This document shows positions 19,099-34,535 of a stretch of 34,535 nucleotides of DNA, piece by piece. Position numbers and translations under genes: made by a program. Below the pieces are notes generated by a model. That model saw only the letters and a program-made list of their open reading frames with translations, did not search any database and was not told where the DNA came from. Source of the stretch: Candidatus Eiseniibacteriota bacterium (GTDB lineage Bacteria; Orphanbacterota; Orphanbacteria; Orphanbacterales; Orphanbacteraceae); assembly GCA_043809585.1 (NCBI GenBank), contig JBDROZ010000072.1, positions 62,001 through 96,535 on the forward strand, read 5' to 3'. The stretch's first letter is position 1. Every line of letters starts with the position of its first letter.

Positions 19099-19187
19099 AT
19101 CGAACCTCCCTTTTCTGGTTCCCGTTCCGCTCAGAATCCGTACCGAGAATGATCCGAAGGGACTCCTCCGCCCGATCAGTTTTCCAA

Positions 19188-19368
19188 TAGCCGGTGGATG
19201 GCGGGAGGATTCGTCGCGAGGTCCAGGGGGAGGGAGGCGAGAGGGCTTTCCGCACGAGGAGCTCCCGGAATCGTAGCCGAAGCTACAATGAGGAAGCGAC
19301 GTAGGAGGAAAGTTCTCGCAGCCCCTGATCCCGGACCGCAGCGGAATCCTACCGGGATCCACCGGCTA
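19188..19368 (-). repeat. Imperfect palindromic intergenic element, copy A (181 nt)
   Basis: Perfect 12-bp terminal inverted repeat TAGCCGGTGGAT (19188-19199) / ATCCACCGGCTA (19357-19368). Further arm complementarity (AGGATTC/GAATCCT) and a central GTAGC-TTCG-GCTAC hairpin. Shares phased motifs with copies B and C. Confidence 0.85.
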
Positions 19369-20316
19369 CTTGAAGACCCATGAGAAGGAGAAGCGATGGG
19401 TGCCTCCCAGATCCGCCATGGAAGCGTAGGCGTAGTCGAACCGGTACCCCCGGATCTTCCGGAGGCCGAGCCCGAAGGTCAGCCCCGCAAGATCGCCGTC
19501 CTCGCTCCGGTCGCGGACCTCGGAGAAATGGGACCGGTAGCCGGCGCGGAGGAAGAAATCGGTCACCCCTTCCCATTCGACGCCGACATCGAGGCTGTTG
19601 TCCCAATCGACCGCCCAGCTCCACTCGCCCGCGACGAGGAGCCGCCGGTCGAAGAACGGGTAGGCGGCGGCGGCGGCGACCCGCGTGGGGAGAGGGTCGG
19701 CCTCCTGGAGGTAACCGGAGTTCACCGTGCCGAAATTACGGACCGTCCCCCCGATCCGGAGCCGGCGCCAGAAGTTCCTCATGAGCAGCCCGAAGTCGGC
19801 CGACATGGCGAGGGCGCTCTCCTGATCGATGGCGCCCGTGACGATCGCGCCCGAAGCCCCCACGAAGATGTTCCGGCCGAGCCGGTACGCCAGGGAGCCC
19901 TTGAGGCAGAGGTCGGTGGAGGTGAAGTCGCCGAGCCCGTCGCCTGTCGGATTCTCGAGGGTGGTCCGGGGGATGTCGCGGATCGAAAAGAAGCGGAGGG
20001 AGAGACCGAAGGTCGTTCTCCGTCCGACCGGCTGGGCGAAGACGACGGACCCCCCGTGAATGTCCTCGAGGTAGCTCATGTACTCGGTCGAAAGGGCGGC
20101 GTGGTTGAGCTGGCCGATCCCTGCCGGGTTCCACTCGAGCCCCTCGGCCCCTTCGGCGACCGCCGTGTACGCCTCCCCCATGCCGACGGCCCGGGCCCCG
20201 ACGCCGATCCGCAGGAAGGGAAAGCTGCGCGTACCGACCTGGTCGTTCGCCGACACGCCGGCGGCGGTGAGGACCGCCCCGATCGCCATCGCCGAGAGCC
20301 CCGCACCCCGTTTCAT
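19366..20316 (-). CDS. PorV/PorQ (UPF0164)-family outer-membrane beta-barrel protein
   Basis: Signal peptide, FLRIGVGARAVGMGEAYTA, WNPAG, LRAGY, C-terminal DYAY...LGGTHRFSFSWVF. Confidence 0.8.
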   Translation of the reverse strand: MKRGAGLSAMAIGAVLTAAGVSANDQVGTRSFPFLRIGVGARAVGMGEAYTAVAEGAEGLEWNPAGIGQLNHAALSTEYMSYLEDIHGGSVVFAQPVGRRTTFGLSLRFFSIRDIPRTTLENPTGDGLGDFTSTDLCLKGSLAYRLGRNIFVGASGAIVTGAIDQESALAMSADFGLLMRNFWRRLRIGGTVRNFGTVNSGYLQEADPLPTRVAAAAAYPFFDRRLLVAGEWSWAVDWDNSLDVGVEWEGVTDFFLRAGYRSHFSEVRDRSEDGDLAGLTFGLGLRKIRGYRFDYAYASMADLGGTHRFSFSWVFK

Positions 20317-23523: not shown

Positions 23524-23770
23524 AAGGCCGCGGTTCTCGCCAGTTTCCGTAGCGAGGATGTGGATCGGACGGCGAGAGGCCGACTGGGACGAGCCGCTCC
23601 CGGAGGCGGGGCCATAAGATCCTCCCCCCGGGCGCTAACACTTATCGCTCCTAACCGTCGCGATAAGTCAAAGCGCCCGACGGGCCCCGCTGAGGAAGCG
23701 GCGACGGAAAGGAGGCCTCGCAGCCTCCGAGCCGCGGCCGCAGTAGGAAACTGAAGAGAAACGCGGCCTA
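23524..23770 (-). repeat. Imperfect palindromic intergenic element, copy B (about 247 nt)
   Basis: Terminal arms AGGCCGCGGTTCTCGCCAGTTTCC / GGAAACTGAAGAGAAACGCGGCCT. Nested stems GCGGGGCC/GGCCCCGC, CGGGCGCT/AGCGCCCG, CTTATCGC/GCGATAAG. Clear similarity to 34376-34535. Confidence 0.88.
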
Positions 23771-24544
23771 GCCGGTCTCCTTCAGCTTCTCCTTCGCAAG
23801 AGGCGCTTCGACGGACCCCGGAAACTCGTCGACGAGGCGGGTCAGGATCTTCCGCGCCTCACCCGGGTCCCCCAACTCGAGAAAGCAGGTCGCCCGCTTC
23901 AGCAGGGCCGCGGGAATCCGCTCCGAGTCCGGGAAGTCCCGCTCGATCCGGGCGAACCGTTCCGCCGCCTCCCCGGGCTCCCCTTCGGCGAGGTAGCACT
24001 CTCCGATCCAGTAAAGGGCGTCGTCGGAGAGGGAACTCCTCGGATAGGCCTGGAGATAGGCGTCGAATCCGGCAAGGGCCGCCCGGTAGTTTCCCCGGAC
24101 GAGGTCGAGATAAGCGGCGTCGAAGAGCGGTTTCGGATCGACGACCACCGCGGCCTCGTCCGTCTGCCCGGTTTCGGAGCCGGCGGGAGGAGACGGCGCG
24201 GAGCCGAGCCGGTAACGTACCCGGTCCAGCTTCCCGTCCATCCTCTCCACCCGCTCGTTGGTCTCTCCGAGGCTTTGGTCGAGAGCGTCGATCCGGCCGA
24301 GCACCTCCTCCCTCCCCGCGGTGATCTCGGCCCGCAGGGCGCGGAGGATCTCCATCTGCTCTTCCGAGAGCCCCTCGATGCGGACCAGCCGCTCTTCGCC
24401 CTCCGCCTGCCCCTCCCGGAGGGCGGCGATCTCCCGGGCGTTCTCGTCGGTGGTGATGGGGCCCCGCACCAGCTGCTTGCCGTAGCAGCCGGCGCCGAGG
24501 AGGGCCCCGATCCCGAGAAGCGCGCCGATCCGGAACGGTCTCAT
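23768..24544 (-). CDS. cpoB: Tol-Pal associated protein CpoB/YbgF
   Basis: Lipobox LGAGC, coiled-coil segment, TPR C-terminus (YLQAYPRSSLSDDALYWIGE, PAALLK). Lies directly after pal. Confidence 0.88.
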   Translation of the reverse strand: MRPFRIGALLGIGALLGAGCYGKQLVRGPITTDENAREIAALREGQAEGEERLVRIEGLSEEQMEILRALRAEITAGREEVLGRIDALDQSLGETNERVERMDGKLDRVRYRLGSAPSPPAGSETGQTDEAAVVVDPKPLFDAAYLDLVRGNYRAALAGFDAYLQAYPRSSLSDDALYWIGECYLAEGEPGEAAERFARIERDFPDSERIPAALLKRATCFLELGDPGEARKILTRLVDEFPGSVEAPLAKEKLKETG

Positions 24545-24552
24545 CGATCCCC

Positions 24553-25068
24553 CTAACGACTCACATGAAACTCGGCGCGCCGGTTCTTCGCCCACGCCTC
24601 TTCGTTGTGGCCCGCGTCGACGGGGCGCTCCTTGCCGTAGGAGATAATCCCGATCTTGTCCGCCTTGACGCCGTAGCGAACGAGAAAGTCCTGCGCCGAT
24701 TTCGCCCGCTTCTCGCCGAGGGCGAGGTTGTACTCGACCGTGCCCCGCTCGTCGCAATGGCCCTCGATCCGCACCGACCAGCCCGGGTTCCGCATGAGGA
24801 CCTTGGCGTGCTCGGTCAACATGCTCTGGGCCTGCGGCTGCAGACGGAACTTGTCGAACTCGAAGTGGATGTTCTGGAAGTCGTACTTCTGATCGGGATC
24901 GACTTCCACCACCGGCTTCGGTTCCGGCACCGGCTCGGTTTTCACCGGCGCGGGAGCCTTCTCGATCGGCTCGGGCAGCGGAATCTCCTTCTTCGATCCG
25001 CACGAGGCGATGAGGGGTAGGATCATGAGCATGACCACCAAGATCGCGAACGGGGTTCTCTTCGACAT
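24553..25068 (-). CDS. pal: Peptidoglycan-associated lipoprotein
   Basis: Lipobox IASC, IHFEFDK, IEGHCDERGTVEYNLALGEKRA, SYGKERP, NRRAEF. Confidence 0.95.
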   Translation of the reverse strand: MSKRTPFAILVVMLMILPLIASCGSKKEIPLPEPIEKAPAPVKTEPVPEPKPVVEVDPDQKYDFQNIHFEFDKFRLQPQAQSMLTEHAKVLMRNPGWSVRIEGHCDERGTVEYNLALGEKRAKSAQDFLVRYGVKADKIGIISYGKERPVDAGHNEEAWAKNRRAEFHVSR

Positions 25069-25097
25069 TTCTGCCTCTCCCTTTCGTGGCCGCCGCT

Positions 25098-26342
25098 CTA
25101 GAAGCGGGGCCGTGGAGACCAGGACGGCGAGTAGTCCTCTCCCTCGCCCGGCACAAGAAGGCGGACACCGCTGCCGTCCGCCTGCATCACGTAGAGCCTT
25201 CTCTTCCCGGTTCGTGAGGAAGTGAAAACCAGGTGCCTTCCATCCGGGGACCACTCCGGATCCTCGTTGTTGCCACTCTGGGCGGTCAAAAGATACGATT
25301 CCTGATCGACCAGGTCAAGAACGCGGATTTGGAACCCCCCCTCCTCCCGGGAGGCGTAGGCGATCCGGTCCCCCCGGGGGGACCACTTCGGGGAGGCGTT
25401 GTAGTCCCCGCCGAAGGTGAGCCGCCGGACATCCGATCCGTCGTCGTTCATCCGGTAGACCTGGGGTCCGCCGCTCCGGTCGGAGACGAAGAGGATCTGC
25501 CGCCCGTTCGGCGCCCACGCCGGCGAGGTGTCGATCCCCCGGTGATGGGTCAGCCGCCCGAGACCGGTGCCGTCCCTCTTCATCACGTAGATCTCCGAGT
25601 CCCCGTCCCGGGTCATCATGAGGGCGATCCGCTTCCCGTCGGGGGACCAGGCGGGGGCGCTGGTCATGCCGGGGGAACGGATCACGGGGCCGCCGGTCCC
25701 CCGCTCCACTTCGCGCCAGAAGATGTCCGGGTCCCCTTCGGCGTAGGACGTGTAGAGGAGGATCCCCCCCTCGGGGGACCACTCCGGCGTCAGGTTCACC
25801 GTGCCGTCGGAGATCACCTTGCGGAGATTCGAACCGTCCCAGTCGACCACGCAGATCTCCGAGTTTCTCCCGTCGGAGCGGACGAAGGCAATCCGGGTTC
25901 GGGAGATTCCCCGCTCTCCGGTCAGATGATAGATCACGTCATCCGAAAAGCGGTGCGCCCCGTCCCGGGGACCGGAGGCGCCGAGGTCCTGGAGGGACGA
26001 CGCGATCCGCTCCCCCCCCGGCGCCTGGTGGATCGACCCCTGCAGAACCCCTTCCCCGGCGTCGATGAAGGCGTCGACGGTCGCCCGGGCCCTCACCGAG
26101 TCCGCACCGTGGGGTGGGATCATGTCGAAGAACCCCGAGATCGAGAGGTCCCGGGAGACCACGGCGTTCAGGGTCTCGGCGAGGCGCTCGTCCCCCGTGA
26201 AAGGCCGGAGGATGATCGGGATCCGCTCGGTCCGGTACTTGGTGACGCCGAGCCAGACTTCCGTTTGCGCCTGGGCCGCCCCGGCGGCGGCGAATAGAAC
26301 CGCCAAGACGACCGGCAGGCTAACCTCCAAACGTAAAGACAA
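25098..26342 (-). CDS. tolB: TolB beta-propeller protein (start may be TTG 26330)
   Basis: Signal peptide, AHRFSDDV...TRIAFV, and multiple P-x-WSPDG (PD40) repeats. Confidence 0.92.
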   Translation of the reverse strand: MSLRLEVSLPVVLAVLFAAAGAAQAQTEVWLGVTKYRTERIPIILRPFTGDERLAETLNAVVSRDLSISGFFDMIPPHGADSVRARATVDAFIDAGEGVLQGSIHQAPGGERIASSLQDLGASGPRDGAHRFSDDVIYHLTGERGISRTRIAFVRSDGRNSEICVVDWDGSNLRKVISDGTVNLTPEWSPEGGILLYTSYAEGDPDIFWREVERGTGGPVIRSPGMTSAPAWSPDGKRIALMMTRDGDSEIYVMKRDGTGLGRLTHHRGIDTSPAWAPNGRQILFVSDRSGGPQVYRMNDDGSDVRRLTFGGDYNASPKWSPRGDRIAYASREEGGFQIRVLDLVDQESYLLTAQSGNNEDPEWSPDGRHLVFTSSRTGKRRLYVMQADGSGVRLLVPGEGEDYSPSWSPRPRF

Positions 26343-30669: not shown

Positions 30670-31757
<1,088 letters not shown>

Positions 31758-34373: not shown

Positions 34374-34375
34374 CC

Positions 34376-34535
34376 TAGCCTGGATTATGCACATATCTCC
34401 TACTGCGATCTCGGATCGCCGCCTGCGAAGCCTCCTTTCCTTCGCCGCCTCCTCGACGGGGCCCGTGGCGCACTTTCATCTTCTCGCGACCGCTCGGAGC
34501 GAGAAGTGTTAGTGCGCCGGGGGAGCCCCCCGGGC
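34376..34535 (+). repeat. Imperfect palindromic intergenic element, copy C (truncated by the window end)
   Basis: TAGCC...TCCTACTGCG...CTGCGAAGCCTCCTTTCC-TCGCCGC-TCCTC...GGGGCCCGT...AAGTGTTAG...GGGGGAG aligns nearly gap-free with the reverse complement of 23610-23770. Confidence 0.88.

Follow-up and report, generated by a model that had tools for sequence, protein, structure and literature searches.

The window, the whole stretch of 34,535 nucleotides that we analysed, contains copies A, B and C of a family of palindromic repeats which we regard as putative miniature transposable elements (MITEs). Copy B lies at 23527–23767 on the minus strand, as delimited by blastn, nhmmer and a fold of the whole element (-144.1 kcal/mol, z -7.5), and its terminal arms are formed by 23746–23767, which is complementary to 23527–23548. 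A gene at 23768–25168, also on the minus strand, reads into copy B, and the CTAG at the 5' end of the copy (23768–23771, minus strand) includes the TAG stop codon of this gene (23770–23768). Copy A (19185–19371, minus strand) is a basic form lacking the optional module described below and was recognised by an nhmmer match (C72:81367-81189), by its inverted repeat and by its row in our alignment (L096); it begins at the TAG stop of a gene at 19366–20316 (minus strand). Copy C, a member of a young subfamily, is found at 34379–34535 on the plus strand, where a CTAG (34375–34378) is followed by the end sequence CCTGGATTATGCAC from 34379 onwards, and is truncated by the end of the contig at window base 34535. 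We also observed a CTTCTTC-rich direct repeat with a 27/30-nt period at 30672–30866 (five copies, 63–70% alike), which probably reflects low-complexity coding sequence of the minus strand.

Copies B and C each contain a hairpin with two tiers. In copy B this is located at 23629–23679 (minus strand; identified by reading of the sequence, DNA folding and pair counts), where CGGGCGCT (23679–23672) pairs with AGCGCCCG (23636–23629) to form the outer stem and CTTATCGC (23667–23660) pairs with GCGATAAG (23648–23641) to form the inner stem, with TTGA between the stems, an 11-nt loop and TGTT (23640–23637) left unpaired. The copy C hairpin (34467–34518, plus strand; sequence reading and DNA folding) has an outer stem of GGCGCACT (34467–34474) and AGTGCGCC (34511–34518) and an inner stem of CTTCTCGC (34480–34487) and GCGAGAAG (34499–34506), with TTCAT between the stems and TGTT at 34507–34510 unpaired. 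As read from their sequences, the two hairpins are homologous two-tier structures of 8+8 stem pairs each. Folded as single-stranded DNA they reach -22.5 kcal/mol (z -5.3) for copy B and -24.1 kcal/mol (z -4.9) for copy C, and in each case none of 200 shuffled sequences folded as well.

The initial annotation had reported four compensatory pair changes between these two hairpins, and we confirmed this, as four of the 16 stem pairs differ and the eight changed bases (of 32 in the stems) make up exactly these four pairs, with all differences two-sided and no one-sided stem differences between B and C. Going from B to C, outer pair 1 changes from C-G to G-C, outer pair 3 from G-C to C-G, outer pair 6 from G-C to A-T, and inner pair 4 from A-T to C-G. 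By our own arithmetic, the chance of eight random changes forming four Watson-Crick pairs in this way is C(16,4)/C(32,8) x (1/3)^4, or approximately 2e-6. The unpaired TGTT and the GGGGGAG which follows had also been described as invariant; this holds for copies B and C, where both motifs are identical, but not for the rest of the family, in which TGTT is found as TGGT, TGAT, CGTT, TATT, TCTT or TCCT and the AG of GGGGGAG is missing in some relatives. It should be noted that three of the Gs in GGGGGAG are predicted by the fold to pair with the CCC immediately upstream of the hairpin.

The two hairpins had originally been treated as independent copies of an RNA, a description that we would replace, as they are optional tip modules of a larger element. 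The basic form of this element is ~180 bp long (139–185 nt) and folds from end to end as one long imperfect hairpin or rod, made up of a terminal stem of ~22 bp, four short inner stems and a hairpin at the tip, with small near-constant bulges between them. Its layout runs from a TA-G start through a ~22-nt arm and a conserved core to the complementary terminal arm and a C-TA end, and the terminal helix of 22 pairs is 89% paired over 60 copies. The module is a two-tier hairpin of ~70 nt which replaces the 3–5-nt tip loop of the basic element, and in copy B a comparison of basic and long copies places it at 23613–23683 (minus strand, 71 nt). Long forms have either one module, as seen in copy B, or two head to head, as in the full form of copy C, whose full-length sisters carry a second, inverted module beside the first, and element lengths range overall from 139 to 331 bp. 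There are 35 modules in the genome, 13 with the C allele and 22 with the B allele. No reading frames are conserved, and an ATG after the module opens differing frames across copies. In copy B, the end of the module (window 23612–23628, minus strand) reads GGGGGGAGGATCTTATG, in which a GGAGG resembling a Shine-Dalgarno sequence precedes an ATG by seven bases; a 57-codon frame starts at this ATG and runs out of the element, and neither the frame nor the ATG is conserved in other copies.

A number of structural variants were noted amongst the copies. A second optional block of ~100 nt, starting GGAAGTCCGACC, replaces CTCGTCC in the 3' arm of some copies (C2:9803-10043, C82:21945-22264, C100:5610-5940, C25:52852-53086, C40:139-351 and C104:53732-53958), and this block is GC-rich, hairpin-forming and has AAGTC at both borders. 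Two basic copies are arranged in tandem at C84:50503-50862, the second lacking the 5' terminal arm and so representing a partial duplication, and minimal palindromes of ~44 nt consisting of two young-type ends back to back are found at C23:88708-88735, C111:93422-93449 and the Acidobacteriota locus L186. A different MITE of ~190 nt with related ends (TAGCCTTGATCTTGCATGAAATCTCG) and an unrelated inside is located at C112:14717-14909. Other insertion sequences have landed in family copies at C74:13549 onward and C104:53958 (ends CCCGACTT.GCGGATTCG) and at C40:139 (another element), and the landing sites include a CTAG inside a C-form element and the CTAG of the module loop, making the internal CTAGs of the MITE insertion targets in their own right. 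Nested insertions at the module-loop CTAG (C119 and C22) were considered as proof of target duplication and set aside, their junctions being rearranged.

The family is abundant in this genome, which is available as a 4.24-Mb draft of 123 contigs. A blastn search with copies B and C found 143 loci, and a profile built from basic copies and used with nhmmer gave 199 matches that merged to 176 loci. The young subfamily accounts for ~29 complete copies which are 97–99% identical, and many family copies are found at contig ends; the family accounts for many of the contig breaks in the assembly, which near-identical young copies interrupt. Further searches identified the family in six of ten genomes of the phylum (the relatives compared here come from uncultured organisms and are draft assemblies), and in no member of a set of 32 more distant genomes. 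Orthologues of the gene upstream of copy B were found in all eight relatives searched, although these are distant (41–58% protein identity), and in each of them the gene has a stop codon of its own (TGA, TAG or TAA), after which the next gene follows immediately and no element lies between the two. As the orthologous site is empty in all eight, copy B can be regarded as an insertion at a stop codon. We looked for orthologous copies in which compensation in place might be followed, and obtained no pairs with both flanks matching (27 copies; three genomes of a related genus).

Little can be added on transcription from public sequencing runs, which contain small shares of the window, all as contigs. 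One metatranscriptome run includes a 164-nt contig resembling another basic copy and a 235-nt exact piece of the gene upstream of copy B, both of which could derive from DNA and in which strand and ends are not visible.

Copies of the family are flanked by TA, mostly inside CTAG. Amongst the young copies, whose ends are CCTGGATTATGCAC and its complement, 97 of 110 ends are flanked by CTAG, and old copies have NTAG at one end and CTAN at the other, with the TA common to both, a pattern which fits a 2-bp or a 4-bp duplication alike. In this genome CTAG is 13-fold under-represented (1,011 sites found vs 13,177 expected), often holds a stop codon, and is located at family copies in 145 cases; separately, GATC is 3.3-fold over-represented (43,886 sites). 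The same CTAG|CCTGGATTATGCAC arrangement bounds a 1.62-kb element at three loci in Acidobacteriota assemblies (L179, L188 and L199), each flanked by CTAG, and this element contains an ORF of 440 aa that matches the IS1380 transposase model NF033539 at 369.9 bits (cut-off 180) and PF13701 at 451.6 bits. By this match of end sequences, the young subfamily shares its ends with an IS1380-family insertion sequence of other bacteria. Short elements with identical ends and different insides were also found in other phyla. A 16-mer scan of public genomes returned at least 109 loci, where ~1,100 chance matches would be expected by our own arithmetic, and single matches per genome were ignored.

No autonomous partner with matching ends was found in the draft assembly (123 contigs). 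The sole IS1380-family gene above the cut-off in this genome (C96:10995-12188) belongs to an element with the ends CCCAGATCCACGGG flanked by CTAAG, and the IS1380-family matches in a second genome of the set (G008) do not have the ends of the MITE. Three IS630-type (DDE_3) genes were also rejected, having ends (TTGACAATCGCATAAATAAAGTCCTAT) unlike those of the family, as was a REP/REPIN-RAYT system, since the two Y1 transposase genes (PF01797, on contigs C51 and C96) do not adjoin family copies. We note that two copies of an IS630-family element of ~1.1 kb with 29–31-nt inverted ends are present at C38:334-1439 and on C122 (L117, L118). The terminal arms of the old copies differ from one another far more than a single transposase should tolerate.

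We examined covariation over the full length of the element using an alignment of 60 diverse basic copies taken from 74 distinct full-length copies, with most of the near-identical young copies left out. RNAalifold produced a rod of 50 pairs from this alignment, 43 of which show compensatory changes, and the unpaired motifs and bulges between the stems are near-invariant. Across the stems 91.3% of cells are paired, compared with 66.9% when partners are shuffled and 36–48% when they are slid by 1–3 columns, and there are 737 double-sided cells vs 214 expected; none of 500 shuffles reached any of five measures, a count that overstates significance because of the kinship among copies. About 9% of stem cells are nevertheless unpaired in old copies, and a G.U pair is conserved in 52 of the 60. 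Among the 13 distinct copies of the young subfamily, uncompensated non-standard states occur in 15 paired columns, nearly all of them in single copies, and a compensated alternative pair occurs in two columns, one of these pairs being shared (C-G in seven copies and T-A in five).

For the module we made a second alignment of 50 sequences, 49 of them distinct, taken from this genome and from three of the related genus, and subjected it to the same controls. Here 99.0% of stem cells are paired compared with 90.0% after shuffling (reached by none of 500 shuffles, again subject to kinship) and 22–46% after sliding. Covariation is seen in four of the 16 module pairs, which are exactly the four that distinguish B from C. 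Inner pair 4 exists as three alleles (GC 26, AU 18 and CG 5), the G-C state coming from the related genus, and the A-T at outer pair 6 is common to both modules of the C form while the states of outer pairs 1 and 3 are common to C and the related genus. The module has undergone at least five double changes, representing few allele splits among related copies, and the distribution of its alleles is reticulate, making recombination between module alleles likely.

These comparisons bear on the earlier suggestion that the hairpin is selected or actively corrected and not simply decaying. Maintenance of the hairpin is borne out by the pairing of the module (99.0% vs 90.0% shuffled) and by the 43 of 50 covarying element pairs. 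Active correction, in contrast, is the weaker of the two options, with conserved bulges and mismatches surviving and non-standard states left uncorrected.

The wobble test proposed in the initial annotation to separate RNA from DNA was undertaken for the 60 copies and went against an RNA of the sense strand (sense being relative to the abutting gene), with isolated mismatches on this strand comprising 67 A.C and 33 G.U, and 91 pyrimidine-pyrimidine and 22 purine-purine. The antisense strand has the more stable fold in all 60 copies under RNA parameters (mean -118.5 vs -105.5 kcal/mol) and in 59 of them under DNA parameters. Together, the mismatch counts and the more stable fold of the antisense strand argue that the thing preserved is not a sense RNA tolerant of wobble pairs.

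The orientation of copies with respect to neighbouring genes differs with age. From crude gene calls, based on a codon-position GC test and the stop positions of long open frames, a co-oriented gene ends at the 5' end of 50 of the 70 old, diverged copies and a gene on the opposite strand ends at the 3' end of four, with three copies having both and 19 neither. The same calls gave ten sense and eight opposite for 29 young copies, and 13 vs 8 for module-bearing copies of the related genus (21 of 23 scored). TAG serves as the stop codon in 42 of the 60 sense cases, mostly as the first TAG of the element itself; both ends of the element rebuild TAG equally well, however, which means that the stop codon does not impose the bias of old copies, and this bias looks like orientation-dependent survival or an older mode of insertion. 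In the window, copies A and B fit the old-copy pattern, each following the stop of a co-oriented gene. Copies directly after stops are paired no better than the others (0.913, n = 40, vs 0.923, n = 18; p = 0.57; for two of the 60 there was no matching orientation call). No Rfam 15 family matched at gathering score over the window, with chance-level matches only on copy B at E up to 10, and a consensus scan at copy B found neither promoters nor terminators, including no U-tract terminator.

The explanation which we favour, and consider reasonably probable, is that the hairpins belong, as optional modules at the tip, to a non-autonomous DNA transposon (MITE) whose folding is selected in the lineages that propagate. 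An IS1380-type transposase acting in trans would move the element, and those lineages in which the single strand or cruciform folds back cleanly would be copied or tolerated better. Along the propagating lineages stems would then change in pairs, with inserted copies later decaying base by base, and the four double changes between B and C would be allele differences of such lineages. The importance of folding for mobility, the strand or molecule that folds and the identity of the acting transposase are all points that we infer. The level of selection is most likely the propagating element lineage and not each resting copy, as young copies carry uncompensated single changes and pairing is no better after stops. 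Observations that count against this explanation are the 50 to 4 orientation bias of old copies, which is not predicted by a pure DNA-level model, the fact that the two strands are not equivalent in fold stability, the failure to find a transposase with matching ends in this assembly, the divergent terminal arms of old copies and the small number of events behind the covariation of the module.

It is this bias at stop codons that gives some weight to a role at the level of the host, in which the element forms the 3' end of the transcript of the upstream gene, the hairpin serves as a cis terminator, insulator or protector of the mRNA end, and stems are kept site by site; the splits of 10 vs 8 for young copies and 13 vs 8 in the related genus, and the TAG stop in 42 of 60 cases, can be listed on the same side. 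We regard such a role as unlikely, given that A.C exceeds G.U (67 to 33) and pyrimidine-pyrimidine exceeds purine-purine (91 to 22) on the very strand that would be transcribed, that this strand is less stable than its complement in 60 of 60 copies (59 with DNA parameters), that copies after stops pair no better than others, and that copy B is missing from the same site in eight of eight relatives and has no U-tract terminator. A set of independent genes for structured RNAs (regulatory RNAs or ribozymes, for example) would account for conserved unpaired motifs lying between covarying stems, but with no Rfam match, no promoter-like site at copy B, terminal inverted repeats flanked by TA or CTAG, near-identical young copies which break the assembly, and a copy B site that is empty in relatives, we find this hardly credible.

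Pairing could also be kept up without selection if the arms were homogenised by template switching or by conversion of one arm by the other. The stem differences between subfamilies are nearly all full Watson-Crick swaps with one-sided counts of mostly 0–2, and the reticulate distribution of module alleles would suit such a process, yet asymmetric bulges and the G.U conserved in 52 of 60 copies persist throughout the family, 15 paired columns in young copies stand uncorrected and ~9% of old stem cells are unpaired. The persistence of conserved bulges and the conserved G.U in particular disfavours blanket arm-to-arm correction, and we think active correction quite improbable as the cause. A related concern is that the B and C modules might have had separate origins and been brought together by recombination, in which case their four differences would say little about stepwise compensation here. 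Chimeric 'B2' elements, in which a module with a left tip arm of GGGGC type is joined to a right tip arm of ACTAC type, are known from our set, and there are only three or four module alleles, each of them near-invariant, but the alleles are homologous over their whole length with stem differences that are only paired, and every stem of the element shows the same pattern, which makes such shuffling a very improbable account of the four changes.

Returning to the MITE as the preferred reading, we would add one tentative extension, which is rather doubtful as it stands: either the old copies have been retained, and possibly co-opted, as orientation-dependent elements at gene 3' ends, or an IS1380 transposase (related to piggyBac) acts on a single strand of one polarity in its folded state. 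If the latter were true, a single-strand substrate for an IS1380 transposase would explain jointly why the element covaries from end to end, why its bulges stay constant and why the better fold is always that of one strand.

The family represents selfish DNA of a known kind, of which it is an unusually clear case, and is set apart by four features, these being covariation over its whole length, nested modules, strand asymmetry and an orientation bias that depends on age. With dozens of diverged copies in one genome, including a young burst and an old layer, it offers a natural data set for studying how palindromic mobile elements stay folded. That old copies are biased and young ones are not suggests orientation-dependent survival, which would link selfish DNA to the 3' ends of genes in an uncultured phylum that has been little studied. 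It also serves as a warning for annotation, as the hairpins described here are repeats and not regulatory RNAs.

Several groups of bacterial repeats invite comparison with this family. The REP and REPIN sequences are GC-rich palindromes with many intergenic copies, long persistence and associated RAYT transposases (PMC3733652). They differ from our elements in being 20–40 bp long, in carrying GTAG or CGTC tags and in having no target duplication (PMC3733652). Another parallel is bcr1 of the Bacillus cereus group, which is reported to be a transcribed MITE-like repeat of ~155 bp with short direct repeats in which compensatory changes keep the fold (PMC3184786). The bcr1 repeat belongs to an unrelated phylum, has an unrelated sequence and is described structurally at the level of RNA, whereas the wobble test undertaken here does not favour a sense RNA, and it differs further from our family in the modular tip insertions of the latter. 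Compensatory changes that keep the fold are also known in other bacterial MITE-like repeats. The Correia elements of Neisseria, ERIC/IRU of the enterobacteria and RUP and BOX of the pneumococcus are likewise small palindromic intergenic mobile repeats, with TA flanks in Correia and RUP, a modular build in BOX and, for ERIC, reported effects on neighbouring mRNAs that depend on orientation, but they have different transposase families and no sequence similarity to the family described here. Integron attC sites resemble it in conserving structure over sequence, in having conserved unpaired bases and in having one strand that folds better, but our copies are dispersed and not found in cassette arrays.

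The IS1380 family of insertion sequences, examples of which include ISEcp1, IS1380 and IS1247, can also be compared. Our elements share with it the CTAG|CCTGGATTATGCAC end, which is identical to that of the transposase-encoding 1.62-kb element, as well as ends that start CC, and insertion at CTAG which rebuilds a TAG stop. We found no description of this family in the literature on IS1380 MITEs, though one may be in print elsewhere. As differences, no autonomous partner with matching ends was found for the family in the draft genome, the arms of its old copies are very different, and the element has more than two ends alone, being a covarying rod over the full length with conserved bulges and optional nested modules.
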